DNA of 63,959 nt, counting the filler, from Neolecta irregularis DAH-3 (lineage: Eukaryota): the NCBI GenBank assembly GCA_001929475.1. It is 8 parts of 8 records of this genome, joined end to end, with 100 filler letters (N's around TTAATTAATTAA, not from the genome) between each part and the next. Parts side by side here need not be neighbours in the genome. Positions count along the whole stretch, not along the records: positions 1 to 19,930 come from LXFE01004370.1; 7 more parts are not named here. One strand, written 5' to 3'. Below the pieces are notes generated by a model that had not been told where the DNA came from, ran no database searches, and was given only the letters and a program-made list of their open reading frames with translations. The number at the start of each line of letters is the position of its first letter. Position 1 is the stretch's first letter. Shown piece by piece: positions 1 through 59,145 of this stretch. The position numbers were made by a program, and so were the translations under genes.

Positions 1-169
1 CCTCGTGGATACTTAATGACCGACTTCATGGCACAGGGCTCCTAAAGCCCTCGTAAAGCAGACATTTTGGACTACTGTGACCGACATCTGCCGACTTTTC
101 TCTACAATTCGCACCGGGTTCTGGAATGACTGGTCAAAAACCGGCACTGAATTTTCTCGATGTGCCACC
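1..169 (+). repeat. Near-identical copy of 17378..17546 (upstream region and first codons of an F-box-like gene), cut by a gap
   Basis: Direct comparison shows 2 mismatches in 169 nt; includes ATG and MTGQKPALNFLDVP. Confidence 0.9.
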
Positions 170-264
170 NNNNNNNNNNAAAGAATTATATACATAATAT
201 AGTAATTTAATCCTGCTCTGCCCATTTCTGCCATGCACACTACCACCCAAAATGGTTGTCACAT

Positions 265-341
265 GTTAGGCCCGGCCCATGGGTCAGTCAATGGGCTGGG
301 CTTTTTAAAAAGCCATGGGCTTTGGCCCGTCCCCAACACTG
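265..341 (-). mobile_element. Putative hAT-like transposon end with CCCATGGG/GGCCC subterminal motifs
   Basis: Minus strand starts CAGTGTTGGG; a similar end lies at 61518; the flank is CpG-poor. Confidence 0.4.
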
Positions 342-844
342 AAGCAATACCGAACAGGAAAATTGATTACAACATGTAGGCTGGTTTCTTCCTGACTCTG
401 CCATGTTCCTTTTGCCAGTAATGCCCAACCCGAGTCTTGCTCTCCTCATTGCTTCTTCTGTATGCCATAATGCATGTATATGTGAAAATGTTTCTGGCAG
501 TCTTACTGGACTATAGTCTGCAGGTGCAGTATAAGCCTTGCAGCAATTAGAGGGATTGCTAGGCAAGGACACTAATCGAGAGAAAACACTGAGCAATTTA
601 GAACCAATTATATTCCTGGACCAATGAAAAAATTAGAATTCGTAAAATCACCAAATATCATGATACAAATTTTGGGTCAATCTGGTGGCTGGCGAACGCA
701 CCTTAAAATAAATAATAATAATAGTGGTATGTCGGTGGTTCTAGTTGAGGTGGGGTAGTATCGAGTTCCCCAATAGCAGACAATCCCTTACATCACCAGT
801 CGAATCGCCGACTTTTGAACTTGCGGATCGTCGTAATTGAGTCG

Positions 845-3096
845 ATGCCCGAACATAACACAGCAATAAATGATTCTGAAGTCGAGGTTTTCAGCGTTCC
901 CCAGCGATTGTTCGATGAATCCAAGCACCCAAAGCCTTTCATTTCGAGTTTCAATCAGTATCAAGAAATGTATGAGCGTTCAAACAATAAACCCCATGAG
1001 TTCTGGGGAGATCTTGGCCGAGAGCTTCTTGACTGGCAAACTCCATTCAAGACCGTTCAGAGCGGCAGTTTTGAACATAGTGATGTAGCTTGGTTCCTAG
1101 AGGGAGAGCTGAATGCCTCATACAATTGTGTTGATCGACATGCCATCGCTCGACCTGATGCCGCATCGTCTAACTTTTCCGTCCAAAGGCTCACTGCATA
1201 GATTGCAATTATCTACGAAGCAGACGAACCAGGTCATGGGCGAGAAATTACCTATTCCGAATTATTGCGAGAAGTCTGTAAAGCAGCTAATGTCCTCAAA
1301 AAGATGGGAGTCAGAAAAGGCGACACCGTAGCCGTCTATATGTCCATGATTCCAGAAATAGTCATCGCACTGTTGGCCATTGTTCGAATTGGTGCTGTTC
1401 ACTCTGTGATTTTTGCCGGGTTTTCCTCAGAGTCGCTCCGTGATCGGATTCTGGACGCAGATTCTCGTGTTGTTATCACCACCGATGAAGGACGCCGAGG
1501 AGGAAAGACTATTGGAACAAAACATATTGTAGATGATGCCCTAAAACAGTGCCCTCATGTTAAGCATGTCCTCGTCTTCAGGCGTACTGGGAACCAAGTT
1601 CATATGCAGAAAGGGCGGGACTATTGGTGGCACGAAGAACTTCCCAAATACCCCCCAATTTGTCCTCCCGAACGAATGAAATCTGAAGATCCCCTTTTCC
1701 TGTTGTATACCTCCGGTTCTACCGGAAAGCCAAAAGGCCTTATGCACACAACTGGTGGATATCTCGTGGGGGCAGCTGCATCTACGAAATACGTCTTTGA
1801 TGTTCATTCAACTGACAAGATCGGAACCGCGGGCGATATTGGATGGATCACTGTAAATGTGCTATCTTGTAATATACTAAACATTTTAGGGTCATACATA
1901 CATTCTTTATGGGCCTCTTCTTCTCGGAACGGCCACGCTTGTATTTGAAGGGACACCGGCTTACCCTTCATTCTCTCGTTACTGGGAAATTGTGGAAAAA
2001 CACAAGCTTACCCATTGGTACGTCGCTCCAACAGCAATTCGCCTCCTTAAACGAGCCGGAGACACTCATTTCAAACATGATATTACCTCTTTGCGGATTA
2101 TAGGCTCAGTTGGAGAACCAATTGCTCCAGATGTATGCACATATACATGAGTAGACTGATTATTAGATCTGGAAATGGTACTACGGAAAGGTTGGGAACA
2201 GTCAATGTCAGATAGTCGATGTATACACAATTTCGAGAAACTTTGCTGACGAACAAGACCTACTGGCAAACTGAAAGTGGATCCCATACAATTACTCCCT
2301 TCGCATGTGCCACACCCACAAAGCCTGGTAGTGCAACCCTCCCATTCTTCGGTATTCAACCAGTTATTCTCGATCCAGAAAACGGGAAAGAACTTACTGA
2401 TCCAAATGTTGAAGGCGTCTTAGCTTTTAAGAAACCGTGGCCTAGCATGGCTCGAACCATATGGGGGGCCCATGAACGATACTTTGATACTTATATGAAG
2501 CCTTATCCAGGCTATTATGTACTCAAGCAAACTTGGACGTTTTTGATGAGTTTAGTTCACGGGTGATGGTGCTAGTCGCGATTATGACGGATATTATTGG
2601 ATCAAGGGGTAAACATATTTCCCAAATCCCTCAATTCAATTCATAGACGAGTTGACGATGTCGTCAATATATCCGGTCATCGACTTAGTACAGCAGAAAT
2701 CGAGGCGGCGTTAACTAACTATCCCGGAATTGCGGAAGCCGCATGTTGTGGCATCCCGGACGAATTGACTGGCCAAGCTGTAGTTGCTTTCGTTTCGCTC
2801 AAATCTGGCATTGATGCTTCAGAAAATTTGAACAAGGAATTGACTCTCCAAGTCCGAAAAGCAATCGGACCATTTGCAGCCCCGAAGAAAATTTATCTAA
2901 GCATATCTCTCCATGTTGAACGACGCTGACGTTTGAAGTCGACGATCTTCCTAAAACTCGAAGCGGAAAGATCATGAGACGAGTCCTGCGAAAGATACTT
3001 GTGGGAGAACAAGATCAGTTAGGAGATTTGTCAACTCTCGCCGATCCGTCTACGGTTGAAGACTTGGTGAAAATCGTTCATGGTTCAAGTAACTGA
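845..3096 (+). CDS. ACS1: Acetyl-CoA synthetase, 7 introns (1163-1201 GC-AG, 1853-1889, 2133-2166, 2221-2257, 2519-2555, 2609-2646, 2901-2938 GC-AG)
   Basis: [14 protein letters not shown]-binding motif, [31 protein letters not shown]. Confidence 0.97.
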
Positions 3097-3546
3097 GGAG
3101 TCTTTCAATCTGCATTCTCTTCATCTTCTTATTAATCGATCATGATTGAATAAGTTGTATTCAGTTGACTCTACTTTTCAAAGGTACTGGATGTGATTCT
3201 TTGTTTAAATATTTTCCAAAATTATTTTTGTCTATCCCAAAGGATTTAAAGTAGCGCCCTTCAAACATGTGGAAATGCATAAAACTAGAACTTGTTCCAC
3301 TAATGTTATTGAACTCCATTCAAGTCGATTTACTCTTGGTGCACCCGGTCCGTCTTTATCTCGACCCCGCCCTACAGTCACTCTTTTGATTATTTGTCTT
3401 AGCCACAGTTTCTCTCGGTCTTAGCTCCTAATTACTAAACACTTGTGGCATTTCGACTGTTTCCACCTGACCACCATAGCCTCGCTTGGCTCATATTGCC
3501 AAGCATTTCAGCGAATCGTCCTTCCAGCTCGTCAGATTTATATCGA

Positions 3547-6099
3547 ATGGTCAAGCTATTCTCTTCAATGTGGCTGCCATGTTTCATAATAGGTTGTGCT
3601 CTGATGTCAGTAGAAGGTAAATACTATTGAGTTACAGAGGTGATACTACAGCTCGTTCATCGCGTCCCCCTCCCATTCGCTATGTATCGCATCTAAAAGA
3701 TATTATAGCTTTGGAGAAGAATGATCGATCATTGCATATTTCCTTTAGGCTGCCTTTCTTGGAAACACAGAGCCATACTAAATTGATTCTCGAACCAAAT
3801 AACGATATATTACAGCATCCAGAAGCATCAATAGAGTATCATGACTTAGAAGGGAACGTTAGAAAAGAGCCTATTACGAGGCAAGGGGTTCAAACATATC
3901 GAGGAACATGTTGGGTAGCGGATCATGAGCATGATTGGCGTGAAGCGGGATGGGCTGCGATTACTCTCATCCAAGACGGACCTTTGTTTGAAGGAGCATT
4001 CATGATAGATGGAATGGCTCACCACGTCCAGCCATGGCGGAAATACTCTGCCCGTAGAGGCGCTCTCGACTACAATGTCCGCGGAACGAATGAAAATATG
4101 GTTATCTGGACCGACTCCCATATCGAAAGTTTACCAGAACTTCTCGTCAACGGCCATTCATGTCCCGCCGATAGGCTCCCTTATAACATCGATCCAGAAA
4201 ATTCAATCAACAAATATTTTAGCTATCAGCAACCCAACACATTATTTGATTTCTGGAGTAGTAATAAAGCTTTTGGATATGGTTCCCGATTGATGAAACG
4301 TCAAAATATCGATGGGAGTTCAGCCTTATTACCGGGTTTTACGAGTAGTACGACCCTTGTCTCTACTATCGGAAATACCGATGGATGTCCAAATGTTAAA
4401 AAGGTTGCTCTTGTAGGTGTTGCCGTGGATTGCGAGTACGCCCAAACTTTTTCAAATTCTTCCGAGACGAGAGAACATATTATCACACTCTTCAATACTG
4501 TCTCAACTGTTTTCGAATCGACATTCAACGTTACACTTGGATTGCTTCAGCTCGTTATATCGGATACAAATGCTTCATGTCCGTCTTCACCGCCAAGCAA
4601 CCAGCCTTGGAATGCCAATTGCAACTCGAATTTATCTTTAGATGATAGATTAAATCTGATTAGTACATGGCGAGGAACTCGGTCTGGAGATGGTATCGCA
4701 TTCTGGACTCTTCTTACAAAGTGTAATAGCGGAACTGAAGTTGGCGTAAGTCAATGCCTTGCTACGATTTAATGTATTTAGGTTGCTTGGCTCGGAACCT
4801 TATGTTTTGATGAGACCCAGACTCAAGGCAATACTCAGGTAAGCGGAGCGAACGTTGTTACCCAGGGGAGCTCAGAATGGAAAGTTCTCGCCCATGAAAC
4901 TGGACATGTGTTTGGTGCTGTGCATGATTGCAGTATGTAACTTTTGGGTATATTTGTTGACCTTGTAGTGAGTGGATGTGCTGCTGTAAACACGACTTGC
5001 TGTCCATTCACTAGAACTCAGTGCGACGCAGGTAGTCAATTCTTGATGAATCCCACTACTGTTCAGAGATCAAATTCCTTTAGCCCTTGCTCAGTTGGGA
5101 ATGTGTGTTCCGCAATAGGGAGTCGAGCTGTCACTTCATCATGTCTTACAACGAATAAGAATATCAAGTTGATAACTGCCGGCCAGTGCGGTAATGGAAT
5201 TGTAGAAGAGGGAGAGGATTGCGATTGTGGAGGTGAAGAAGCCTGTGCTGGCAATAAATGTTGCAATCCTAAGACCTGCAAGTTTACAACAGGATCCGTT
5301 TGCGAGTATATCTATCTTATGCTATGAAATCTAATGGCATAGTGACTCGAACGAATCATGCTGCAAAAACTGTCAGTATGCTCCATCCTCGCAAATCTGT
5401 CGAGGGAGTCGAGATGAAAAGTGTGACCCATCTGAATTTTGTACCGGGACGTCATCGGCATGTCCAGAAGACCAGTTGGTATCAGATGGCACATCATGTG
5501 GTGCAGGTAGTCTGGCCTGTGCTAGTGGTCAGTGTACTTCGCGGTATCTATGTCCTCCTTTGCTTTTGCTGATGACTTTTCTGCAGAGATCTGCAATGTA
5601 CAACACAAATCAATGGAACAACTGGAGATTGTGGTCTTCTTGACTGCCAGGTTACATGCAGAGCACCTGAATTTGGGCCTGCAACTTGTGTTTCGCTACC
5701 TCAATACTTTCTTGACGGAACACCCTGTGGAATTTCGGGGACATGTGGTAAAGGTATTTGCCGGAATCAGAGCGAGATTCGTGCTGTCAGTACTTGGATC
5801 AAACAGGTTTCCCTTTCGATGACGCTCTCGTTAACATTTTCCAGAATAAGACTATCGTTATCATCGTAGCCGCAATCGTAGGAGGCCTGCTTATCTTTTG
5901 TGGCGCCCTGTCTTCACTCCAGAGACTACGAAGAAAACCGACTGCACAAATACGACCTCGTCATATTCAATCTCGAAGATATCAAACTCGCGCGAATATG
6001 TTTCAGGTTCCTCCTGGTCCACAGCACCCAAATCAAGTCTTATATGCGCCTTATCCACAATATCCCGGTCGCAATGCTCCTCCAGAGTACTACAGATGA
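3547..6099 (+). CDS. ADAM-family metalloprotease (prodomain, reprolysin, disintegrin, Cys-rich, TM), 6 introns
   Basis: Signal peptide, KR processing site, HETGHVFGAVHD zinc motif, CGNGIVEEGEDCDCG, C-terminal TM and Pro-rich tail. Confidence 0.93.
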
Positions 6100-6266
6100 G
6101 TCCTCTTCATTCCCGAGTTGGCAAAGTCTTTCTTTTCGTGTATGGTTATAGATTGGAGTTATTTTAAATACATTTATTATCACACGCATCGTAACAATAG
6201 CGTAAACATGAAAAATGCAATGTGTGCTAACTCTACAGCGCCCCTAACTGAAATACGGAAATTTGC

Positions 6267-6945
6267 TTATGCCATGTTCTCAGTGGTGTCGCTCGGATTT
6301 CGGTCGAGCCAAAAGAGCAGACAATTATACCAAATTCTCGTTGTTTGATTGACTTCGTCGTGATCTGGTTCTTCAAGGATCACATTGTAAACATGACTAA
6401 AGGCCATAAAAGTCGACACGACTGTCATGACGATCGACATTATAGGAAGAAAAAAGAGCACTAGTACAAACCGCATTGTTGAAGATTTGGGAGGGCAATC
6501 TTTAATCATTCGAAAATGCAGATTTATGATAGACTGGTAACTCGAAGAAATCAGATTTCGAAAGGTTCCTGGGAGTGGTTGGATAGGAACAACAGACAGA
6601 ACGAAACCGAATGAACTGAACAGCAGCCAAATGAGGCCTGAAATACTGAGAATCATGTTGAAGAACAAGAAATAAAACTGCGAGTTCATCAAGAACGCTC
6701 CAGACAACCATTGTTACCCAAGCCAATCCATGAAACTCGCCATCGATATCGTTACAAATCAACATTGACTCTGAGTAGTACAGCGTTGTATCTCCCCCGG
6801 AACAGAGCGATAAAGAACGAGGCTGTGTATACTTCTCATTTGTGAATAGTGAGACAGGACCAGGTGACTTTTCTTGCGGAGAAGGATGGTAAGTCGCTGG
6901 TGGAGGCGTAAGAGGCAGAACTTGCTTATTCTGGCTAGTATTCAT
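6267..6945 (-). CDS. Hypothetical membrane protein (two ORFs, perhaps joined by a GC-AG intron at 6698-6740)
   Basis: Pro-rich N-terminal ORF followed by a hydrophobic ORF; the frames join through a GCGAGT donor. Confidence 0.45.
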
Positions 6946-7618
6946 AAGCCTTGGATCCAAGCGGATTGCTGGAAATAGCTGGAAAGACCGGAAAGGCGAG
7001 GATAAATAGCAGACTGGCCGGTTAAGAAAAGCGAATTCGTCGGGGTTTGCCCCTTCCCACTATTGCTTGGCATTAGAGATTGCCGGCCTTGGCAAATGCA
7101 ACATCAGGAATTTGAAGCTTTGTAACCATACCGAGTCTTTCCCTGTATTTTCCATGCGGGAAAAATACGCCATAGAACCCTGGGGTAAGCGAATCATGCT
7201 GAATAGCCCAGACCTGGAGGTTTGGAAAATTGAATATTAGGGAGGACCACCGATTGGTTGACTCTGCGATCTCGGAAAATGCCTCCTCACCTTTACCTCT
7301 GAAACATCAGAAAGATGTCCCCAAACTGAGATTCGCAAGTGAATGTGTCCAAGCCACCCTACAGAAGGGCTGTGCAAACCCCACTTGAATATCTTTTCGG
7401 GGTATTCATCTGAACACTTTAAAGGTGGAAAATATTAACCTTTTCGATCCCTTAACATGAATCATTGGAGTCACATTGCTCGAGATATCTCAGTTCTAGA
7501 TTTCTACTAAATTCTTCTGATGCTGCCCCTGTGCACTGCCTTCGTTTCTCCACATCTTATTCGCAGCTATATACCCCGTGTATTTCCATCATCTGGGTCC
7601 CTTGACCAGTTCAGAGTT

Positions 7619-9572
7619 ATGTTATCAAGACTTCTTGGCCTTGTTGTTGCTATTGGTTCCGTCCTGTCCGTTCCCGTGTCCGAGTCACCTTCAGTACCGC
7701 TGGGACTTAAATGGACCGAAAGCAATGCGCTTCCAGTCGTCAGTCTAGGTTATGCTCAATATCGAGCTTCGGAATATGACCCGATACAAGATTTCTATAT
7801 TTTTAGGAATATTCGGTAGGAAGATCGACTAGACATGATCGGGAAGGCTAACCCGGCAGATTTGCGGCACCTCCCGTTGGTAATCAGAGATGGAAATATC
7901 CTGCTCCTCCTCTACACGAAGATGGAATCCAGGATGGCAGTATTGGGTATGGGTGCTACAATTCTGCCCCTGGAATCCTTTCAATTGCTCTACCTGCTCT
8001 TAAATTCTTTCCTCAAAAAGAGGACTGCTTATTCCTTGATCTCTGGGTCCCTGGAAATTCTGCAAGACTAGCAACTACGTCATCATTACCGGTTTTAATC
8101 TTCATTTTTGGCGGTGGATATGGTTTGATTGATCCCCGTAAGGGTATTACTTACCATCAAGTCATTGGAACCAAAGATATGTATTCTGGCGGCCCATTAG
8201 TCAAGGCTGCAGATAACCAAATCATCTATGTCCGCATTAATTATAGAGTAAGCTTATTTCTCCCGGAATTAATTTAAAATTTTAGCTCGGAGCTTTCGGT
8301 TGGCTTGCGGGAGAAACGCTTCAGAAAGATGGCCTTGCAAACGTTGGTTTGCATGATCAACGTGTATATCTCTTTGGATGACACAACCCTCTGAGCAAAT
8401 AGGCCGCTTTTCAATGGGTCCAAGATTACATTCACCTCTTTGGCGGCGATCCAAAAATTGTGACAGTAATGGGTGAATCCGCTGGCGCCGGCTCGATATT
8501 TCACCATATCGTTTCTCCCATAAAGCCCCAATTTAAACGCGCAATAATGCAATCGCCTGCCTGGTATCCCCAGTTTGATAGGTATGGACTGGAACACCAA
8601 TACCAGAATTTTGCTATAGCTGCTGGTTGTTCAACATTCGATCTTCATTGCCTTCGAACGCAGACGGAAGAAAAGCTTCAAGAAGCCAATCTGGCAACTA
8701 CTTTGCATTCACAATATGGGACATTTCAGTATGGACCAGCGATTGATGGTGTTTACGTGCTCGATGAGCCGGATAAGAGATTGTCTAGCGGACATTTTGC
8801 TCACGATGTTGAAGTCATGATGGGATATAATTCGGACGAGGGAGCTATCTTTACAAATCCTACTATAATTACAAGCAAACACGTCGATGAGATGTTGAGA
8901 CTGAACTTTCCGTACTCGAATGAGACCTTCTTCAACGAGGTATTGTTATCAAGTTGGGTTTTAAGGAGTTAATGAGTAGGTCAAAAGGTTGTATCCTCCA
9001 CCGCCCACTAGACGATACTATACACAATTCGGTCGAGTTAGTGAAATGATTTCAGAGTTTATTGTCACTTGCAACGTATATATGATTAATCTCTTTCCTA
9101 AGAAATAGTCACGATATTTTGGACAAGCGTTCAACGGAAGGACCTTTAACTATAGATTCGCGATTCCTCCTGCATTACATGGAATGGGTATAAGACCTCT
9201 TAGTCAATTCTATTGACTTTTAAAGATCTTCTCTTCACTTTCTTTGGTGTTGACCTTGATTTTCCAGATTTAGGCTTATCGGTATTAATATCTCCAGACT
9301 TTCAAAGATCTCTGGCATGGGCTTTACAACGATATTTAGTATCCTTTGTCCGCTCAGGGGACCCCAATACCTATCGTGTAAAAGATGGTGTTGGTAACGT
9401 CCAGTTTCCTCGCTATGGTTCAGAACAAACAATTTTGAATATGGATATTATTGGATTTGACGCTCGTCCAGATCCGCAGGTACCCTCTGATAGATGTGAC
9501 TTCTGGGTAACGGCACCATATGTCGATAACACGATGAATGAAATAAATGACAAGGTTGGATTAGTCTTTTAA
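7619..9572 (+). CDS. Secreted type-B carboxylesterase/lipase, 7 introns
   Basis: Signal peptide, RFAAPP, EDCLFLD, GGGY oxyanion loop, NYRLG, GESAG nucleophile. Confidence 0.93.
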
Positions 9573-9813
9573 TAAAATTTGCCTAGAATTTCCTGTACAT
9601 TCATGTTTCATTTTAGATAAAGCAAAGAATGAAGTCAACTTTTGCTCGTACATATGCAATAGCCTTGAATAACTGAAATTGAAAAAAAGATCGGAGGCAA
9701 AGGAAGAACCTTTAAGTATCTTACAAAAGGGAAATTGAAACGATCATTTTTCGACGAACACGAAGCCAATAACCAGCCTATTAACTGTTAAGTAATACAG
9801 GGTCTAATAATGT

Positions 9814-12266
9814 CTATGGGTCGCCTTCGCCCTCGCCGTCTTCATCGTCGTAATCCTCGTCGACTTCGATGTTTCTCGAGGGAGGCTCGATCTCGTCATC
9901 CGGATCTTCTTGCCTAATTTCTTCCTCGCGAGGCCAACGATTAATTGATGTCCGTCGCTGAGGTTCATGAGGATATGGTGGCAGTTCTCTGGGACGATCC
10001 ATAATGGAAGAATTCATTTTGGGCCGAGGTGGCTCGTCTTCATCCCGGCGTCGTTTAATTCCCGATTGGCCGTTTTCGCTAGCAAGAGGATCACGAAGGT
10101 CAGATGTATATCGGGTTCCACGTGGGGAGATAAGTGGACCATTATCCATATGTACTCTCTCGTGGTTGGGACTGTTTCCCCGGCCAAGAATAGGAGCAAG
10201 ACTTCCTCCGGGCGGGGCCGGTCGATTGGACTGTGATTGCATATTTTGTGGTTGTGGTTGATTTTGGGAGTTTGGTGGGTAAGACAAGGCAGAAACGGGT
10301 CCGGGTTGCTGTTGCGAATGATGTGACTGAGGGTATCCAACACGAAGTTGAGGAGGAAGTTGTTCTCGAGGTAGTTGCTGGCTGTAATGCTGAACTGGAG
10401 GCCCCTGTTGTACAGGCGGGGGACTCCGTCGAATGGGTGTTGGCATTTGTTGTCGAAGACCGTTCATTGGCGGTGGTCCATTGGCCAACGAAGGTACAGG
10501 TTGCTTGGATAACTCGGGGCTAGTCATGTGTCTCAGAGGAGGCTCCTGGCGGTACTTTGAAGGTGGTTGATGCGGCAAATGAGCAGGCATAGGGCCGCGA
10601 TCAGAAGGACGATCTGTACCATTTGGTCGAGATGTCTCTACTGATGGCTGTGTCCAATGTGTAGGCGGGCCTGCAATAGCAGGCTGGTAAGCAGTGGGAT
10701 TAACATCTTGAGGGTGAGGAGCATTGTTTGCATGAGCCCCGGCTTGCCCACCTGAGCGAAGATAGTTTAGACGGCTTTTGATATGATGGTTCTGGGGATC
10801 GAGCTCTGATGCTCGAGTATATGCATCAATCGCATCTTGAACTTGATTGTTGCAAGATTCGTACTAAATTTAATTATCATACATCCCCCAAGGTGACACA
10901 TACCAGTGTTCCCAGGTCGTACCAAACTTCTGAGATATAGGGATTCAACCTTATTGCCCGTGAATATGCATCCAGAGCATCGCGGTATTGATTAATCTGA
11001 TAGTAGAGAACGCCGATGGAACACCAAAACGTTGGATTATGACCGTCACGATACACTGCTTGCTGATATGCTTCGTACGCCTTGTTGTACTTTTGTTGTG
11101 CCATATAACATCGACCAAGGAGGTACCAACTCTGCGCATCGTTGCCGTCTTATTATTAATGTAAAGTAGGCTTAAAAGGGTACGAACCAACTTCAAGACT
11201 TTTAGTCAAGTAAGACACGCCAAGCTCTTGATTAGTAAACGTGGTTCCCGGCTGATGATGCAGCCATCCAAGCTGTTGAAGAACTTTGGCATGGTTGGGG
11301 TTTTCTGTGAGGACACGCTCGTAAGCTTCTTTGGCCGATTTGAACTATATTCAGTAAGCCTGCAAACATTGGGTCGAGAACCTCTTTCTGACTCTCGAAA
11401 ACGTGGCCGATTTGGAAATATACGTCGACTTCGGTAAGCGGCCGAGGGGGGTCATTTAGGATATATTTAAAACACTGATCGTTATCTAGGTTCGACACGA
11501 TGATGCAAACCTCGAGCGCTTGTTGGAATTTGCGTTGTTGCTTATATATTATTCCCAGTCTAAAGTAGATCTCATTTCCCTTTTCGAAATTCGGTTCCAT
11601 CCGGAGAACTTGGGAGAATGCTTCTTCTGCATGATCGTAGGATCCATAGCGATCATAGAGAATTCCAATGCCGTACCATAGCTTGGGCTCCTACACATTA
11701 AAATATGGAGAGCAGTGATCCAACCTTTGGGTTCTGGAGATGGTATAGGGCTTGCTGATAAGCACCATAAGCTTTTTGAAGATCATCCATCATAAGATAG
11801 CAATGGCCTGCTAGTTAGCGTGACCCGAGGGACAAAGAATTGCCTAATGAACTCCACACCTCGCCGTTATTTTGCTCGATTGCGATAATTCTTTGTAGAA
11901 ACTCTATCGCCTGGATATAAGCTGTGGAGCACGGAACAGGGGTCCAGATACGTTCTGGAACTGTTCTTTGGATCTAAGAACGGACGCGATCTGAGTCATG
12001 GCCGGGATGGAATAGGCATTATGTCGCAAAGCGTTTTCGTATGAGGCTAATGCGCGTTCGGTATCGCCCATGAGCTCTGCCGTCTTTCCCAGCTGTATCC
12101 AGACGTCTTCGTTGACGGTAGCGAGTTTCTGGATGCTTGCCGATTGCGGAGGAGCAGAATGCTGGACGCCATTCTGGTAGTGGACATTTGCCTGTTGTTG
12201 CTGCTGCTGTTGTTGTTGTTGCTGTGGATGGGACGGAGGAGGCCTGTTGACGGCTACGTTTGCCAT
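9814..12266 (-). CDS. SSN6: Ssn6/Cyc8 TPR corepressor, 7 introns (11808-11843 GC-AG)
   Basis: PolyQ N-terminus; TPRs including AYEAYQQAVYRDGHNPTFWCSIGVLYYQINQYRDALDAYSRAIRLNPYISEVWYDLG; VDEDYDD tail. Confidence 0.96.
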
Positions 12267-12944
12267 GGGACGGGGAAGAAGGGGCAAGCGCGGGCGGGAG
12301 AGAGGCGCGATGGAGGTTTGGTGGTTGAAAATGCCACTGACGGTCCTGACGGCAACCCGCCGCGCTTGTAGGCGCTTTCTGTTTTGGCGCCTTTGTTTGC
12401 GCATTCTGATTCGCAGCAGCTCGCACAAACACCACACCCGTAGCCGAACGCTGAACCTGGGATTTGTCTGACCTGCACTCCTAGCCCGCACTCTTGTTCA
12501 CCAAGAGCGCAAATAGTGCTGCTGTGCGGTTCTTAGGCCTTGCATCGCATCCCGCTTGGTCTATATTTGCGGCAGCCACCAATCTAGCATCCCTATTATG
12601 TGTACGGGAAAATCTCTCCATGCTCACCCGAATATCTACTCTTTGGTGAAACACAACCCTGCCAAAACATTTCAGCCATGCGGCTTCACCTGCAGCAACT
12701 TTTTCAAGCTCATCTGTCAAAACAATGAATTCAAAACAGCATATAGCCAATCAAATCACAAGTCTGAATGTCTGCACCAGAGTCACAAATACATACCAAA
12801 AGTTGTTGTGTAATAGCCGTGAGCGAACACGTTGTATAACTGTGTGCACCCTAATCTTTGTCAATATCATTATTGGAAAAGGAGGCGCGCGTGATTATCA
12901 ATTGACATCCGGCTATTTGGAGGTTGGGTTTTTTGACCGCTAAT

Positions 12945-12952
12945 TGTGACTG
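12945..12952 (+). promoter_or_regulatory. HomolD box TGTGACTG upstream of RPL3
   Basis: Exact match to the fission-yeast ribosomal-protein promoter element, 70 nt before the ATG. Confidence 0.7.
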
Positions 12953-13021
12953 GGCACTGAACTGGCTTACTTTTTCCCAAACCACCATCTTACACCCCAG
13001 CTTACCTGTAGTATATAGGCC

Positions 13022-14425
13022 ATGAGGTATCATACCCTTTCTTATCTTTTTGCTAATACCAACAAGTCACTGTAAGTTTGAGGTTTGTAAACTCTAACGC
13101 GAACAATCAAAGCCTGATATATCTAGTCCCCCAGAAAGGGTTCCCTCGGGTTTCTGCCCAAAAAACGAGGTATACTTCTTCATTTTTCTAGCCTCTCATC
13201 CGATAGCTGCTCGCCACCGTGGACGAGTACGCTCTTTTCCCCCAGATAAACAAACCGATCCGTGTCATTTGACCGCTTTCATGGCTTACAAAGCTGGAAT
13301 GACACACATCGTCAGAGATTTGAATCGACCGGGATCCAAGATGCATAAGAAGGAGGTCGTTGAGCCAGTCACCATCATAGACTGCCCGCCCATGGTCATC
13401 GTTGGTATTGCTGGATATGTCCAAACCCCCAGGGTACCAATCTAGGCATATTCTTGAGGTACTGATTCCTCTAGGGTCTTCGATCTCTCACCACCGTCTG
13501 GACAGAGCATCTCAGCGAGGAAGTCCGTCGTCGGTTTTACAAGAACTGGTACAAGTCGAAGAAGAAGGCCTTCACCAAGTACGCTAGAAAACATGCCGAT
13601 GGCGCCAAATCTATCGCACGGGAAATAGAACGCATTAAAAAATACTGCACTGTCGTCCGAGTCCTTGCCCATACTCAAATTCGAAAAACACCAATCAAAC
13701 AAAAAAAGGCTCATCTTATGGAAATCCAGGTCAACGGAGGAACAATCGCTCAAAAGGTCGACTGGGCTTACGAACATTTCGAAAAGACAATCGATATTGG
13801 CTCCGTCTTTGCACAAGATGAGAACATCGACATTATTGGTGTAACCAAGGGTAAAGGGGTTGAAGGTGTTACAAAACGTGTATGTTTCTCCTCTCCCTCG
13901 ACGATCATTAAATTACATAGTGGGGCACCAAAAAACTACCCAGAAAGACTCACAAAGGTCTACGAAAAATTGCTTGTATCGGGGCTTGGCATCCAGCCAA
14001 AGTTACCTGGACGGTTGCTCGAGCGGGTCAGGACGGTTATTTCCATCGAACGTCACTCAACCACAAGATCTACCGACTCGGCAAGGGCGATGATCCAAAC
14101 AACGCTACGACATCCATGGATCACACTGCCAAACAAATTACACCTATGGGAGGATTTCCTCACTATGGATTTATTAAGAACGGTTCGACGTCTTTCAGAA
14201 AATTTATGCTCATTAATTTTAGATTTTATCATGATCAAAGGTTGCTGCCCAGGAGTCAGAAAGCGTGTGTTGACTCTCCGCAAGAGTCTCCATGTTCATA
14301 CAACTCGACGTGCCTTGGAGGAAATCACGCTCAAATGGATTGACACCTCTTCGAAATTCGGACATGGGCGATTCCAGACGGCGGCAGAAAAGTCGGCCTT
14401 CATGGGGGCCCGAAAACACGATTGA
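13022..14425 (+). CDS. RPL3: 60S ribosomal protein L3 (uL3), 6 introns
   Basis: [47 protein letters not shown]. Confidence 0.98.
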
Positions 14426-14762
14426 ACGTGTGGTGTTACTTAGAAGGGTTTCTGATGAGCTGCATTATATATGATTTTCTGCTCCTCCATTTATCTTGGC
14501 AACTTTCTGTGGTACCAACATCATTATTCTACATGACTATCCAAATTTCCTATAGAGCCTGGCTTTGCCGTGATACCATCAACAATATCACTTCGCTCCA
14601 TGACTGTCCACATTTTTTGCATTGTCATATTTCTCCTCCTCTAGTAATGAATCTCGGAATTACAGCAATACTGAACTCCAACATAGACACACAATGACAT
14701 CTTTCAGGTTCACAGGGCATAAAACTATGTGCTCTATGGTCGGTACCTATTGCCATACTCCT

Positions 14763-15206
14763 CTAATAATCCAAGTTGATTGCCTTTCCAAATTTCCCAT
14801 AAAGAAGTTTCTTTAGCTCTGCCATTTCCTGTTTTATCTCGTCCAATTCCTTGCTCAGGAAATCTAGTTTCTCGTCCGTCAATTCTTTTGCCGAATCGAG
14901 ACGCGATTGAACTTCTTCCAGACTCATCAACCAAAAGCTATCGCCAACCTGGTATCTACTTCAGTCAGGAAAAAAAGGCTGAATAATATCTTTCCTGATA
15001 AGTTCATCCTCGTCGCTCAAAATGAGTTCGTTGATTGTATCATCTAGCGAATCCTTCTCTTCTTTCTTGGAAGCTATCGTAGTTTCGATTTCGTCTAACC
15101 GTACATTGAGACTTGAGAAGCGATTAATGCGTTTTTGATCCTCCCAGGCTACTTCTGCATCTGTTTCCTCCTGCGATGAAATAAAACTTAGATTCCCGTC
15201 CGACAT
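14763..15206 (-). CDS. GIM3: Prefoldin subunit 4, single GA-AG intron at 14956-14994
   Basis: EVAWEDQKRINRFS, DEDELIR/YQVGDSF, LYGKFGKAINLD. Confidence 0.92.
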
Positions 15207-15558
15207 GTGGTTGCTCGAAAGATCAGTCTCCGGTAATTCCCGAGGTTGGGACTCTAGTTCAATATCCATCCAATAATCATACATATTCGTAGACCTTAAA
15301 TCTCTGGCAGTGGCATTGGGATTGGGTGCAAGTTTTATTTTACAACAGAATCGAGTTGATGCTCTGTCGATTCTTATCTGATAAGTAGCTAAATTACGCT
15401 AGGAAATGCAAGTGAAAATCGGAGATTCGTTCTGCAAGACAATTATTCATGATGAAGCGATCAGATTCATTAGATAACGGAGAATAGTTGACACTATGGG
15501 AAGGAACTGCTGACAAATTAAGAGTAGGCAAAATCATGCAAGGTCTTCAAACTACCAT

Positions 15559-16796
15559 CTATTCTTGCTTTGACCGTTTTTGCATCTCCATGGTGGCATA
15601 CCTCTTTACCTTTCGATCAAAGTCAAACCTCACGAATGGCCAAATGATTCCTCCTAGCACCCCTAGTACTGTATCCACCAAGACATTATTCCGAGGCGAG
15701 AGACCTATATTGTTGACGAATTGTTTTGCAAGAATATACCTTTCATACTATTTCGAGCCATATTACCGAATAACTCTGTCGTTATCAAGAACTCGCCGCT
15801 ATCAAGACCTTTCAAAACCGCTTTGGAAACTTGTTCGGCAGTTTGACCTGCATCTGATCCTTCCAACTCTTTCGTCAAATCCGGTTTGATCAATTGTTCT
15901 TGCTCAAAACCCGGAGTGTATATAGTTGAGGGAAAGCTGCAATGGACCTTGATATTATATATCATACCCTCCTGGCGAAGAGTATCAGCTAACGACCGAA
16001 GAGCAGCCTTTGTTGGAGAGTAAGACGAATAACCAGCAAAAGTAATGAAACCGCAAAAGGATGATACGAACATAATATGGCGAGGCGGTGAATCTTTGGG
16101 TAGAGGATTCTTGGCCATGAGTTTCCAGGTCGCCTGTACTTCAGTTACGATTCTTTAATGACACGCTTACGTGTGTGATGTATAATGCAGTGAAGTAATT
16201 CATTTTCATTGACCAGTCAAAGACGTCTGTTTCCTGATCTATGAATAATTGCGGGTTTGACATTCCTTGCATTAGTAATTGTAATGAATAAAACAATATA
16301 CCAGCACAGCATAGTAATACATCTGGGATACCACCACATTCATCCAATGCCCTCTGAGCCTCTTTTGCACTCGTCAAGTCCGCACTAACAAACCTCACTG
16401 TTTGCTGATCGCTTCTTCGTGCATTCTATAGTCAATTGGCTGGTAGTTTTAGGAGAATACCTCGATCTCCTTTGCAGCCGCTTTCAGCTTTGATTTATCC
16501 CTTGCAACGATTACGATATTTGCTCCCCTTTTTGACAGATCGATAGCCATTGCTTTTCCCATCCCTTGAGAACCACCCGTTATCACGACAAGCTAGCTTA
16601 TCAGCACTTGCTGACTTGAATCAGTTACTCTTCCGTCCACGATGAAATGATTTCGACGCAGAAACATACCGTAACCAACCAGATATGCAATTGATATTAC
16701 TAAAAATGAAAGCAAAGTTGATTTGACAGGTCCAAAGGTGCCTGCGTAGTCTCTGTATGGCGAAAGGTATATTAATACGTCCAGGAGCGAATACAT
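15559..16796 (-). CDS. TSC10: 3-ketodihydrosphingosine reductase (SDR), 5 introns; the start may be further downstream
   Basis: [40 protein letters not shown]-terminal hydrophobic segment. Confidence 0.9.
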
Positions 16797-17041
16797 GGCA
16801 AGGTAGACGGTTATTTGGCAAATTATTTGTGCGGGCGATCTTCGGCGCCATATATTTTAATAACTCTTAACTATGTTCTGAATATTTTGCATTGACCCTT
16901 TCGTATCCCTGCTCCTTTTTACTTTTATATAGCGTCGCTTTGAAGATAACGTCAAACGTTGAAGAATACGACAAGGTCATATTAGCAAATGCGGCGTATG
17001 ATAAAGCGACGCTTGACTGAACAAGCGGATCAATTTAGTCT

Positions 17042-17078
17042 CGCTGCCGAATGAATGCCCGCTGCCGAATGAATGCCC
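17042..17078. repeat. 18-nt perfect tandem duplication
   Basis: CGCTGCCGAATGAATGCC present twice. Confidence 0.9.
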
Positions 17079-17502
17079 AAGCAAAAAACTTGATTGGTGT
17101 GACTCGATAGAACAAATATCCACATTTTTCTCTGAAAGATATTCATGGGGCCTCAATGGCTGTGATTCTTCTCAGCTGTGATTCACTTCAAGCTACAAGC
17201 CATTCACCAAAGTATATGCTCAGGTGTATCGAATCTAGACCCTTGTCAATGCTTATACGTAACGCGTTGTATAAGTTGTGATAATAAGAAAACGAATTGT
17301 GCTATGTGAACGAGGCCGCCAGAGCGAATGACGCAAGACTTTATGTATATTCTAACGTAATCTTGCCATATGATAAGCCTCGTGGATACTTAATGACCGA
17401 CTTCATGGCACAGGGCTCCTAAAGCCCTCGTAAAGCAGACATTCTGGACTACTGTGACCGACATCTGCCGACTTTTCTCGACAATTCGCACCGGGTTCTG
17501 GA

Positions 17503-19255
17503 ATGACTGGTCAAAAACCGGCACTGAATTTTCTCGATGTGCCACCCGAAATCCAGTCGTTAATACTTGAATATTTACATCCTGCATGCATGGACTGCGA
17601 GGATTTGTCCCTGATCAACGTCGCATGTTCGTGTCAATCGCTTCGTGAAATCGCGGAATCGTTACTTCTCGCGCGTACTCAATTAAGAACTGCGAGGGCA
17701 CTGAGCATTCTGGTATCGCATTTGACGGAGCGGAAAGCAGCTCGAATTATTGATCTGGAGTTTAGCAATTCTTGGACCGACTCTGAGGATTTTGATATCC
17801 AGGAACTATTCAAGAAGCTATTTACACTTTGTCAATATCATGTTACTATCCTCAGTTTTGATCGTATGAGTGAAGAGCATATGAATGTATTGGCTTTGAT
17901 TCTGGAGACCGAGAGATATGATTTTCGCAAGTTGGATCAGGTAAATAATCAGTATTCATAGTCTGATCGCCAAGGTATGTATGGATACACTCCAATGGGC
18001 CACAAATGATCCTGACTTTTCTATTGGTACTTGGGATCCGATTTCTCGATTCAAAAGTTTCATTTCTGGACTCCGACAGTTCTTTTATGCCGCCCCTCTT
18101 GGGCTCACATTTACTGAAGAACAGCTTCAGATTTTATTCGAATCATCAATAGAGGCTTTACAACTACAAGTTGCGATAACTCCCGACGTCGCTCTCATGA
18201 TTCTCAAATATCTTCACCGGTGGAAACATCTTAAACGCCTTATCATCGACTATCGGGAGATGGACCAAAGTCCACTGATGGAGTTTATATCAGGAATATG
18301 GTCAACGTACTATCACTTTAGAGAGAAATGCAATGGGTTAGCCGAGCGACATGGACTTGATATATGTCACGTCGTTTTAGCCGAGCCAGAGGAGATACTT
18401 TCACTTCAGGATCTCCACGGATCAACTTATCCGGCATCGCAAGTTCTTCAATGGTATATTTGTGGGTTCCCTTTTTGGAAAAGAGCCTTTGAGCTTTTCC
18501 CAGAGTTTTCGGATATCGAAATTTCGCAATCCTTTGATTTAATTCTCGATAATCGAGAGGCTATCAATATAGAAAGTCTATGTCTATTAATACCTTTTGC
18601 GGCCCGCTTTGTGCGGCCAGCGTTGAACATGATTCCTGAATTAAAAATCATTACTTTGTCATGCCATGACCATGCTCGGACTGTAGACGAAATTCACACT
18701 CTTGACACATTATTCCTCGAAATATGTCAAACATGGGATCTAGTTGCGCTTACACTCGAACTACAAGTACCATCTATAAGCACAGATGGACTGTGGACTG
18801 GTATCCAAAGCATCAAATCCAACCTGGAAGACGTTCTACTCGATGTTGATAGTCTGTATCAAGGGAGTCTTTTGAGTCCTTCAGAAATGTTCAACCCTCA
18901 ACCTGAAATAATTACAAATCTTCTTTGCATTTTATCTCAATGCGAAAACCTGAAACTTCTCGAGATGACCGGCGGGTATCTTGATGCGAAAGAGCATGGC
19001 CGGCCACTTGAAGAATTCCTCGCTATCATGAAACGTCGCGGTCTGCGATCTTGGACCTGGCAAATCCGATCTTTTCGCGGAGAGGATGAAGAGTGGCTTA
19101 TTCCAGGCGAGGATTGCACTCGTATGATTGCCAAATGCGCTGAATTTTTTAAACGGTTTGCGGATCCGATCGTTGAGTGGAATATTCAGCCGATATTGGC
19201 CTACGAGCAAACTTTGCCTGCACAAATGATAGAAGCACTAGAAATTGTCCACTGA
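17503..19255 (+). CDS. F-box protein with LRR-like C-terminus, intron 17941-17974
   Basis: LNFLDVPPEIQSLILEYL...LINVACSCQSLREIA F-box pattern; LxxLxL repeats. Confidence 0.7.
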
Positions 19256-19469
19256 TACTGAGCTTGATGAGAGACAATAAAAGATACGAATAGGTTCAGT
19301 TACCATTGACCGTAGCAGTTTGCCTAGTATGATATAATATATTCCAAGACTGTCTTGTTCATGGAATCTCTATAAACCTTATAAAGTCGGGATTATTCAT
19401 TTCGTTGAGCGAAGTGAAATTATCTAGTTGCGCTTAACATGGCGTTCTCCATTAATTACCGACACAAGC

Positions 19470-19930
19470 ATGCACAGTACAGATCTAGGGTACTCGCTAT
19501 GGTTATGCCCGCCACCAGATTCTCCAATAATACTTATGCTGCGCTCGAAGATGGATATTCTGCACGAGTTGTTTAGCGATACACCGCGTTTTGAAGGACA
19601 TGTGACGCTGAGCAGCGGGATACCAGTATCCGCCGACGATATTAGTATATTTTTGCAAAAAGTAGCAGACAAGGCGAGGACCTGCGTACCGAGGGTTCAA
19701 GCTAATACACTTGTCTTTGGAACAGAATTTTATAAGCGAGTATTTGTCAGATGTGTACGATCGAACGAATTACTTTTTCTCGTACGGTTTATTCTGGAGT
19801 TAATTGGTACTAGTGCTGATAGGATGGAGGGGTTTGATCCTCATGTCAGTCTTGTGTACGCAAATTACTGCAAAAATGAAGGAGAGGTGACAAAGGTGGT
19901 TGGAGAAGTTTGTGGAATTGGCTGGCTTGG
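19470..19930 (+). CDS. CPD1: 2H cyclic-nucleotide phosphodiesterase (Cpd1-like), truncated by gap
   Basis: YSLWLCPP and two HxT/S motifs (GHVTL, PHVSLVY). Confidence 0.85.
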
Positions 19931-20030
19931 NNNNNNNNNNNNNNNNNNNNNNNNNNNNNNNNNNNNNNNNNNNNTTAATTAATTAANNNNNNNNNNNNNN
20001 NNNNNNNNNNNNNNNNNNNNNNNNNNNNNN

Positions 20031-31462: not shown

Positions 31463-31699
31463 NNNNNNNNNNNNNNNNNNNNNNNNNNNNNNNNNNNNNN
31501 NNNNNNTTAATTAATTAANNNNNNNNNNNNNNNNNNNNNNNNNNNNNNNNNNNNNNNNNNNNCTATCTTCCACATAGGTGCTATATATACATGATACTTA
31601 GTGTCTACGCTATACCTCTCTCATACGCCGAGGGAGTCTCCGCTCTCTGTACAGATATCCAGGTTTACCCCAAGGGAGTATCTCCGTTACAGAAGATAA

Positions 31700-35177: not shown

Positions 35178-35659
35178 NNNNNNNNNNNNNNNNNNNNNNN
35201 NNNNNNNNNNNNNNNNNNNNNTTAATTAATTAANNNNNNNNNNNNNNNNNNNNNNNNNNNNNNNNNNNNNNNNNNNNTTCGTCCTAAACTTCTTCAATGA
35301 GAACTGACCGGAGGACTTTATGTATTGCTTTCTTGATTGTTGCATTGCAACATTGTAAATGTTGCTTCATTCTGACAGAAGGTGAATTTTGCAAAACAGC
35401 TGATGAGATTGCTCAATGATATTGTAGTGTACCAAGTGAACTAGGATATACAAGCTGCTATGCGTCTACTAAAATTGTAAAATATGAAAAAATTGATGAC
35501 CCGCCATCAATAACCAAACACCTGAACCAAGTACAGTCCATAGATAGACCTGCGAGAAAAAAAAACACAATGCACCAAGCCCCAGATCCTCATTATGCCA
35601 AACCAGCTGAAAGTAATCACGAAAAAAGGAAAAAAATAATACCAGCAGATTTGGACAAC

Positions 35660-47503: not shown

Positions 47504-50500
47504 TCAAACCGCACACCTAGATTTCATGCCCCTGTTCTTGTTGACCCATTTTCTTGCTTCGTCAATCCACATGACCGAACTGGCTAGGAAGGTCAATCCT
47601 ACAAGGTCCCACAGTCCAATTGGTTCCGTTTGAAAGACGTTACGTAGGAAAGGAGTGTAAATTACCAACAGTTGACCGAGAAGAGAGCCACCGACGGCGT
47701 AGTTAAACACGGTATTCGTAGGCATCGAGAAGACTGATTTTGTGGCCGATCGGCATGATAATGCATTAAACATATCAAACAGCACGAAACACGTGAATGT
47801 CTATGGACAAAGGTCAGTTTTTGCACGAGATATATCGGGGGTAAATAAGCGAACCATTGTTGTGTCTCGAGAAGTAACTTGTCCGTCGACGAGATTGTAC
47901 ATGTAGACGATTAATGTGCCGAGTAAAATGACGCAAGCCTGTGTACATACGCGGAAAAGGACCTTTCGAGTAAGAATAAGGGCGTCTCTGGATCTAGGAG
48001 GTTGAGACATGACTTCTGGGTCGACTGATTCTACTCCCAATGACTGCGCAGGCGGACCATCCATAAGAATGTCTAGCTTATCAGCACCCAGAAGAGAATA
48101 AATAGTGGAATTACTGATCCAAAGGATTTGCATAGCGTTGAGGGGGTTGGGAAGACCAAAGAGGGTTGAAATAGCGATCAATGAGAGAGCAGCCATACTT
48201 GTACTCAGCTGAAAAGTCACAAAATTCCGAATGTTATAAAAGATTGCTTTTCCTAATATTGGGTTAGATGGAGCTGATAAGAGTTTAGAAGGAGTTCAAA
48301 CCTTCTTCGATGGCACCCAGAATGGTGGTGAAATCGTCGTCGGTGAGAATCATATCTGCTGCTTCTTTGGCCACATCTGTACCCAATTTTCCCATACTTA
48401 TCCCTATATCAGCTAATTTGAGCGCGGGGGCATCGTTCACGCCATCCCCTGTCATTGCAACAACTTCTCCTGAAGCTTGTAGTGCCTTTACAATTTTCAT
48501 TTTATGGCGCGGTGTGGTCCGTGCAAATATTGTGACTCTGGAGATAAGTTCTTGGAGTTGTCGCTCAGACAGGTTATCTAATTGTTCTCCTGAGCAGACG
48601 GAATGGAATTGCGGGATTCCAAGGGATTGAGCTATCGATACGGCGGTTTGCTCCGAATCGCCGGTGATCATGATGACTTTGACTCCTCCATGTAGTAATT
48701 TCGAGATACTTTCGGCGACATGAGGACGCGGAGGGTCATACATTCCGACGAGGCCGCAAAATGTAAGATCTTGTGGCGATGACGAGCGACCGAGAGCGAG
48801 AGCTATCACCCGGAGACCCTGTTGTGCCATTTTCGATGCTGCAATGTTGATTTTTTTAGGATCGAGGGGTTCAGTTTTCCCATCACGGTATAACTGGTTT
48901 GTGCAATTTTGAAGAACGCAGTCGTGTGCTCCTTTTACGATACAGAATTGTTCGGTAGAGCCATAAGTATTTCCAGTGACTGCCTGCCACTTTCGTTCAC
49001 TTGAAAAAGGAATTTCTTTTGTCCGTTGGAAAGTCTGCTAATTAGGTAAGAGCAAGTTAACATATACATCTCGATTGTCTGTGAGACCGAAGGATGAGAG
49101 AATTTCCATGAATGCAACGTCTGTAGGCTGACCCACAATTTTTCCATATTCGTTTATTCGTGAATTATTGCAAATATTTCCTATCCAGAGGGCTTTCTTT
49201 AGGGCGACGTTGTGGTTGAGAAGGTAATGGGCACTTTCTACTGTGCAGTCGATGGGCTCATCGTCTCCACAAGTGTAAGTATGCGTGATGGTCATATGGT
49301 TCATAGTAAGGGTGCCTGTAGTAAACATACTGAAGGGAAAAGAGCGGGCTACCAGTTTTATCGCTGCAGACGACACTGACACTGCCTAGGGTTTCCACAC
49401 TGGGAAGTCTTCTAACGATGGCCTTTCTACCAGCCATTCTGAAGACACCCAAAGCGAGGGTGACTGTGACAATGATGGGCAGACCTTCTGGGATGGCAGC
49501 AACGGCGAGGGATACGCCGATGGTGAACATATCGAGCCATGGGCGGCCCTGGACGAGACCAATGAAGACGATGACACCAATGACGCAGAAGCTTAGGAAT
49601 GAGAGTTGTTTTCCGAGGGCATCCATGGACTGTTGGAGGGGTGTTTTTGGTTTCTCGACCTGGAGTCAGTTTGGGGGGCTCAATATCTGAAGACTTGCCG
49701 TCTGCATCAATGAAAAGACTCCGCCAAGCTCTGTATCCATGCCAGTGCCAACAACAAGCCCCTTTCCATGGCCTGGTGTGAGGGGCAGTATGGGGGGATA
49801 GGAGTATACCATGACGGACCAGAGTGCCCATGAAGGCTATGTTTCTGCGGTCTGTGACGGGGAGAATTTCGCCGTTAGACTGGATGGCATTTACATGTTT
49901 TTCTGTGGGCTCGTTCTCGCCTGTCATGTTGCTTTCATCGATCTGGAGATGGACAGCCTGGTGGTGAGCTATTAAAAAGAAAATAGAGGAAGGGGGCACC
50001 TCTAGGAGACGCAGGTCAGCGGGGATGCGGTCGCCAACATGAATCTTTATTATGTCGCCCGGGACGATTTCATTTGCGAGGAGGCGGATGCTGTGGTCGC
50101 CGCGGAGAACGGAGCAGTAATGGGGCACGAGCTTGTTCAGCTCTTCGAGTGATTTTTCTGAGCGGTACTCTTGGACGAAGCCAACTGCGGTCAGCGAGAT
50201 GATTCAGAAAAGAGTCTGCGTACCTGTGGTGACGATGAGAATGGCGAGCGAGATGCTGAGGGCGTCGTCGGTGTTGCCCATGAGCAGCGATACTGCTGCA
50301 CTGCCCAGCAGCAGCAGAATCAGCGAGCTCTCGTAAAACTGCTTGACAAAGCGCAGCAGCAGGCCTTCGTGCTCGGGGGCATCCAGCTCGTTTGCACCGT
50401 GGACAGCGCGGCGGTGGGCGGCCTCGCGGGGACTCAGGCCGTGCGGATCCGCAAACAGCTGGGCGAGAGCATCGGCGACAGACAGCTCGCAGAAGCGCGC

Positions 50501-50554: not shown

Positions 50555-51329
50555 GGGCGTGAGAACAAGCAGGATGCGCTTGTTCTGGTGGTTGGACAGC
50601 CTGCTGTCTCACTCTGTCTGGCTCTGTCTCTCGCTGTCTCGTTCCTGAGTAGTGCCCCTTGGCCACAGGCGTAGACGCACCTGCTGCACATGCGTTGCTC
50701 TGCCGTTCAGTCGTCCATCCCGCCAGTCGCGCATCCTTCCTCTCCGAAGGCCCAGTTATTCAGCCTTCAGCTGGTCCCGGCTCGTATTGCTAATCGTACT
50801 GGAAACTATAGGCTGCCACCACAGCCTCACGAGGACACCAGCCCCAGGACGCCAGCACTGCAGCCCACAGCGGGCCAGCCATGCTCCTGTCCTGTCCTGC
50901 TTTCCTGCCGCCTTCAACACCATGTCTTGTAGTTATTATTACGCACAACCAAAATCCATGCAGCGTTTTCTCTCGTCCATTCAGAAACATGTATTTGTAC
51001 CTTTCATCCTTCCTAGCGATGGAGCCTATTATTATTCAAATATTGTTTTGCACTCTATTGTCTACGAGTTTCGACAAGCTCAGTTAGAAGCTTTCAACCC
51101 TGCACCATAACGTTTAGCCCCCAAAATATGACTAAAATTGGGATATTAACTATGATAAGCCTAAGTCCAATTCTGGACTTTGGACTTGCTTGCTTGCATA
51201 TTTCAGGCCTTTGGACTTGCTTGCTTGGNNNNNNNNNNNNNNNNNNNNNNNNNNNNNNNNNNNNNNNNNNNNTTAATTAATTAANNNNNNNNNNNNNNNN
51301 NNNNNNNNNNNNNNNNNNNNNNNNNNNNT

Positions 51330-57133: not shown

Positions 57134-57233
57134 NNNNNNNNNNNNNNNNNNNNNNNNNNNNNNNNNNNNNNNNNNNNTTAATTAATTAANNNNNNNNNNN
57201 NNNNNNNNNNNNNNNNNNNNNNNNNNNNNNNNN

Positions 57234-59045: not shown

Positions 59046-59145
59046 NNNNNNNNNNNNNNNNNNNNNNNNNNNNNNNNNNNNNNNNNNNNTTAATTAATTA
59101 ANNNNNNNNNNNNNNNNNNNNNNNNNNNNNNNNNNNNNNNNNNNN

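Follow-up and report, generated by a model that had tools for sequence, protein, structure and literature searches.

The prefoldin subunit 4 gene (PFD4/GIM3) of Neolecta irregularis DAH-3 very probably harbors a genuine U2-type intron that carries GA in place of GT at its 5' end and is removed precisely, giving a protein of 134 residues. This intron is a rare, real member of a documented class, as GA-AG introns have already been recorded in fungi and animals. It lies in a stretch of DNA of 63,959 nucleotides, called the window in the following. An earlier note, made from the sequence alone, had proposed an obligatory 39-nt GA-AG intron at 14956-14994 of the prefoldin subunit 4 gene. The minus-strand sequence is as claimed there, and a contig of a public sequencing run (X2, described below) skips the same 39 nt.

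Domain profile and homology searches agree with the note in identifying the region 15206..14763 (minus strand) as the Neolecta irregularis gene for prefoldin subunit 4. Taken together, its two halves match PF01920 (Prefoldin_2) with an E-value of 3.2e-17 and 62.9 bits against a Pfam cut-off of 27.6, and each exon surpasses this cut-off singly (32.3 and 38.8 bits); both exons are intact. The best solved relative of the encoded protein is human prefoldin subunit 4 (7wu7_4, 6.9e-16, HMMER). The solved-structure matches 7wu7_4 and 6nr8_4 are both named Prefoldin subunit 4, with no other subunit among them, and the UniRef-named matches in the protein database bear this same name. The nearest named proteins, with 40-45% identity, are prefoldin subunits 4 of Glomeromycota, where an acidic D-E-D-E-L-I block is followed by one residue and then by Y-K-I-G. 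In the HMMER alignment, the human 7wu7_4 chain shows a gap of 12 residues where the window's reading continues through the 39 nt. The parts of the gene and the elements of the proposed intron are the following:

14995..15206, minus strand: coding part of PFD4 exon 1, PF01920 profile positions 1-51, with the ATG at 15206..15204
14989..14997, minus strand: 5' splice site CAG/GAAAGA, whose GA occupies 14994 (G) and 14993 (A), from the sequence
14956..14994, minus strand: PFD4 intron of 39 nt in phase 2, with 5' GA and 3' AG, from the X2 contig, homologues and fungal loci
14967..14978, minus strand: 12-nt pyrimidine run including 7 consecutive T at 14976..14970, from the sequence
14964..14968, minus strand: CTGAC branch-point-like motif with 14965 as the putative branch A, 9 nt before the intron's final base, from the sequence
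14961..14963, minus strand: in-frame TGA, which ends translation upon retention, from the reading of the open frame
14956..14957, minus strand: 3' splice site AG, from the sequence and the X2 joint
14763..14955, minus strand: coding part of PFD4 exon 2, PF01920 profile positions 49-105, with the stop codon TAG at 14765..14763

Two stop-to-stop open reading frames, 15398..14961 and 14960..14763 (minus strand), lie in one frame, and the TGA at 14963..14961 is all that separates them. Removal of 14956..14994 leaves a coding sequence of 405 nt, whose translation aligns across the junction with six homologues without a gap. Exon 1 ends in AG, the first two bases of a split Arg codon that the first base of exon 2 finishes. 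Since retention meets the TGA, the term obligatory is a fair one. In a collection of 5.8 billion proteins, the only exact match is a 107-residue open reading frame ending at the intronic TGA, and the spliced Neolecta irregularis protein was not found among its entries of 80-258 residues.

Read on the minus strand, the region runs ...ATCAG / GAAAGATATT...CTGACTGAAGTAG / ATACCAG, where the slashes enclose the 39 nt from 14994 to 14956. With GA at 14994..14993, the intron departs from the GT or GC donor of U2-type introns, while the precise removal in record 3 of the apparently cDNA-derived X2, the 3' AG and the branch motif are as in that type. The exonic AG before GA and the A at position +3 that mark the GA-AG subclass are both present (cAG/GAAAGA). 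No GT lies near the donor: the closest one upstream is at 15099, 105 nt off, and the remaining GTs fall at 14959, among the final 4 nt of the intron, and within exon 2 at 14948. The sole GC within the stretch, at 14979, would as a donor create a 24-nt intron; we rejected it, since it leaves an insert of 5 residues and the X2 joint differs. In both respects the earlier note had judged the donor region correctly.

Two public runs cover the positions 13000..17000, both labelled 'DNA?' and neither RNA, namely a genomic assembly (X1) and a second run (X2); we compared both as assembled contigs, a level at which rare variants can stay hidden. Record 3 of X2, which is 444 nt long and has a depth of 185.6, matches 14775..14955 and 14995..15257 with 0 mismatches and 0 gaps, and its two pieces are contiguous, with 14955 joined to 14995 and exactly the 39 nt 14956..14994 skipped. 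On the plus strand this joint has the ends CT..TC, corresponding to GA..AG on the minus strand. As 2 letters can belong to either side, three placements of the cut are equivalent, namely GA..AG, GG..TA and AG..GT. Despite its label, X2 behaves as cDNA, as we infer from its skipping the introns of both neighboring genes and from a depth of zero in the intergenic bins. Indeed, it skips four GT..AG stretches of 37, 41, 41 and 40 nt in the plus-strand RPL3 gene and four CT..AC stretches (GT-AG on the minus strand) of 35, 37, 35 and 36 nt in the downstream reductase gene at 15700..16630. In the bin 14876-15009 the depth is 131.6, which equals 185.6 x 95/134; 39 of the 134 bases are therefore uncovered, and no X2 contig spans the intron. 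An unspliced PFD4 form was not assembled in this one transcript-like data set, and minor intron retention or alternative forms may exist beneath the contig level.

One could suppose that X2 lacks the 39 nt not through splicing but through a genomic deletion, be it in an allele or in a processed copy, and the organism label of X2, which differs from that of X1, as well as the record 'DNA?' would fit such a view. However, a run without any intron of two neighboring genes and without intergenic cover is cDNA-like, its exons are identical to the window, and the joined form is absent from the genomic X1 (0 contigs with 14955 next to 14995). Moreover, such a deletion would need to hit, exactly to the base, a site where 16 of 19 other fungal loci have an intron, as described below. 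We thus hold this explanation to be very unlikely.

The earlier note had raised a miscall of base 14993, where a sequencing or assembly error could hide a true GT donor and hence a canonical intron. X1 provides a single contig over the 4001 bases of 13000..17000, re-assembled as its record 1, which is identical to the window at a word depth of 415.5; as the window itself may have been built from X1, the support of X1 for base 14993 is not fully independent, and a systematic read error might be common to both. The published assembly is 199-fold, according to the available part of the genome paper (PMC5309816). In view of these depths, there is only a very slight chance that the A is a miscall.

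A further explanation dispenses with splicing altogether and invokes read-through or recoding of the TGA, ribosomal bypassing or a decaying pseudogene, with the X2 junction as an artefact of reverse transcription or assembly. The 39 nt are indeed a multiple of three that keeps the two halves in frame, one recoded TGA would open a frame of 147 positions from the ATG at 15206, and a 2-nt repeat (AG) flanks the junction. Yet a repeat of 2 nt is too short for typical template switching, and the 13-residue insert lacks a counterpart in any homologue compared. Furthermore, the X2 contigs contain the spliced form alone, whose depth resembles that of the rest of PFD4, and intact exons that each score as PF01920 speak against a pseudogene. 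Altogether, an unspliced PFD4 appears extremely improbable, and removal of the 39 nt from the transcript is the reading that we follow.

Evidence for the age of the intron comes from metagenome contigs, in which a scan with PFD4 exon 2 found 19 loci encoding relatives. A close relative of Neolecta is not among these 19 loci, the top matches showing 46-63% identity across all or part of exon 2. At 16 of them, the acidic block and the Tyr motif can be connected by exactly one GT-AG solution, and the resulting introns, which comprise 7 distinct sequences, are always in phase 2, their acceptor preceding the Tyr codon by one base; the sequences themselves were read out at 9 of 10 loci chosen for this. 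At the remaining three (L002, L017 and L018), the upstream exon or the motif is absent from the available DNA. Placed as GA..AG, the window's intron shows this same phase and one-base offset, whereas the placements GG..TA and AG..GT do not. The orthologous introns thus resemble the window's in their phase (2) and place, with a single base between them and the Tyr codon that opens Y-[KRQ]-[ILV]-G-[DE], but they start with GTGAGC, GTGCGT, GTACGT or GTTAAT and measure 46-96 nt, compared to GAAAGA and 39 nt in the window. Judged by these sequence comparisons, the intron position in PFD4 is old and widely conserved in fungi. With a GT-AG intron at the corresponding site, in identical phase, at 16 of the 19 loci, GA would be derived from GT, most likely through replacement of T by A at intron position +2.

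Splicing by other machinery, either the U12-type minor spliceosome or an unconventional reaction of the IRE1/tRNA-ligase type, has some points of contact with the sequence. Near the 3' end, TTCCTGAC bears a loose, partial likeness to the U12 branch consensus TCCTTAAC, and its A lies 9 nt from the intron end; the U12 branch site TCCTTAAC is placed 10-15 nt from the 3' end. The 5' end, GAAAGATA, however, shows nothing of the U12 donor [AG]TATCCTT, and ascomycetes are generally reported to be without a minor spliceosome. As to the IRE1 type, the intron region is able to fold into a hairpin in which the donor region UCAGGAAAGA pairs over 10 bp with UUUUUCCUGA, i.e. with the pyrimidine tract and branch motif (14965-14998, minus strand; MFE -19.5 kcal/mol). 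Yet the 5' junction sits inside a single stem and not in the 7-nt loops of paired stem-loops, and comparison with shuffled sequences gives the fold no significance (z -1.82, with 14 of 200 shuffles as good). At this z-score, the pairing may be a chance complementarity of purine-rich and pyrimidine-rich stretches. With ordinary GT-AG introns in the orthologous genes standing against both routes, we give them next to no credence and regard the PFD4 intron as a substrate of the U2-type spliceosome.

How could such a donor be used? We compared the GA intron with 13 neighboring GT-AG introns, 8 of which are X2 joints and 5 were obtained by threading the public acetyl-CoA synthetase protein on the window. 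These introns are 34-41 nt long with 58-76% A+T, and the GA intron, with 39 nt and 67% A+T, has the usual length that the earlier note had ascribed to it. Outside position +2, its donor matches CAG/GTAAGT at 7 of 8 positions, compared to 3-6 of 8 in the neighboring introns. None of the 14 introns has a longer T run than its 7 consecutive T, and its pyrimidine run is exceeded in a single one of them, the RPL3 intron at 13880..13920 (15 nt). The CTGAC motif that the note had seen is at 14968..14964; the pattern YTRAY, used here to search for branch motifs and matching CTGAT, CTGAC, TTGAC, TTGAT and TTAAT, is present in 7 of the 13 neighbors at a distance of 6-9 nt from the intron's 3' end.

We thus hypothesize that the mismatch at +2 is tolerated by way of other recognition elements that appear unusually good for the Neolecta irregularis genome, namely the exonic CAG, the G at +1, AAG at +3 to +5, the 7-T tract, CTGAC with its A 9 nt from AG, and a length within the typical 34-41 nt. 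The remaining donor positions would pair with U1 and U6, and intron definition might tolerate A at +2. That strong flanks, branch and pyrimidine region compensate for this A is suggested by a correlation across 14 introns. A comparison of the whole window with Rfam returned 0 matches, and with that no snRNA gene.

Apparent non-GT donors account for 2 of the 16 window introns examined, i.e. the GA of PFD4 and an inferred GC-AG intron of acetyl-CoA synthetase. It is conceivable, though rather unlikely, that Neolecta irregularis with its introns of 34-41 nt accepts non-GT donors far more often than other fungi do; if so, Neolecta would be the fungal counterpart of Oikopleura and Eurytemora, and many public gene models would be wrong. 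One acetyl-CoA synthetase exon in the window is 100% identical to a Neolecta irregularis DAH-3 protein. The public model of this protein (P0016) threads on the window with a 117-nt GT-AG 'intron' (1085-1201, plus strand), which removes a conserved block around N-C-V-D-R-H that is present in homologues. A 39-nt GC-AG intron at 1163..1201 (plus strand) would restore collinearity, and the public model seems to be mis-spliced.

Two broader surveys were set aside. In a survey of 148 ORF pairs, junctions of PMR1 and acetyl-CoA synthetase were flagged as having no GT-AG solution where the sequence contains ordinary GT-AG introns, and the approach was too noisy. A screen for introns with each of the 16 dinucleotides found 91 candidates for GT and 54-145 for the other 15; because GT is not enriched, this screen is unfit to gauge the frequency of GA-AG introns.

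Several observations concern the neighboring genes and the rest of the window. At 50185-50223 (minus strand), the gene for a PMR1-type Ca-ATPase is interrupted by a GT-AG intron of 39 nt that contains a GCTGAC motif, and further downstream in this gene a second in-frame stretch resembles an intron without a stop; intron-like stretches that preserve the open reading frame may be common here. One X2 joint of the reductase gene was reported as 16259 to 16296 with the ends AC..CA (region 16259-16302, minus strand). At a distance of 6 nt, 16301..16266 forms a canonical GT-AG intron of 36 nt that contains a TACTAAT motif, and the reported joint probably reflects slippage where an aligned piece ends. 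In the RPL3 transcript contig, X2 passes over 98 nt (GT..CT) at the 5' end (13026-13125, plus strand), and 14 letters without a match stand between the flanking pieces, either because a micro-exon lies there between two introns or, possibly, as an artefact of the contig end. Finally, the window contains 626 N, made up of seven paired 44-N runs, with 12 bases between the members of a pair, and one 10-N run:

19931-20030, 31463-31562, 35178-35277 and 51229-51328, no strand: paired N runs, from the N count
55080-55179, 57134-57233 and 59046-59145, no strand: the other paired N runs, from the N count
170-179, no strand: the 10-N run, from the N count

From these runs it follows that the window is a chain of several assembly contigs, with the PFD4 intron in the first of them (1..19930).

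The PFD4 intron represents a clean natural case of a donor with A at +2 that completes splicing in a fungus, and it is suited to asking what compensates for the lost U at this position. It is a convenient substrate for this question because the intron position is of great age and relatives display the ancestral GT. Its practical relevance lies mainly in gene annotation, as gene finders restricted to GT and GC will truncate PFD4. With PFD4 truncated and the acetyl-CoA synthetase model seemingly mis-spliced, proteome comparisons that use Neolecta irregularis may carry errors.

Neolecta irregularis is rich in introns and has 4202 of them at the compared sites, as stated in the accessible part of the respective study (PMC7940399). 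In the literature searched, we found no statement on non-canonical introns in Neolecta, and the words 'intron', 'splice' and 'prefoldin' are absent from the main text of the genome paper, its supplements aside (PMC5309816). GA donors as such are documented elsewhere. Human FGFR genes contain a natural, efficiently spliced GA donor that needs a canonical site 6 nt upstream (cited in PMC7072748, of which a part was available). Since the closest upstream GT in PFD4 is 105 nt off, this arrangement is inapplicable here.

For Eurytemora affinis and Oikopleura dioica, the accessible portion of the same article describes abundant GA-AG introns with an exonic AG upstream and an A downstream of GA; they are commoner than GC-AG introns, reach 3.2% of the supported sites in one species, and a variant U1 snRNA has been proposed for them (PMC7072748). 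The flank pattern reported there is also seen in the window (cAG/GAA), where, unlike in these animals, the PFD4 intron is the one GA-AG case shown within 64 kb. Among fungi, the sections available to us list 35 GA-AG introns in Ganoderma lingzhi, which are 0.038% of the listed splice sites (PMC11590231), and GA-AG introns among the 0.31% 'other' sites of 2604 introns in Fusarium graminearum (PMC3577648). As far as these sections go, the introns of both fungi share with the window's the GA-AG ends, a place in ordinary protein-coding genes and transcript support. The PFD4 intron differs from them in belonging to the Taphrinomycotina lineage, in being much shorter (39 nt) and in occupying a position that is common to GT-AG introns of other fungi.
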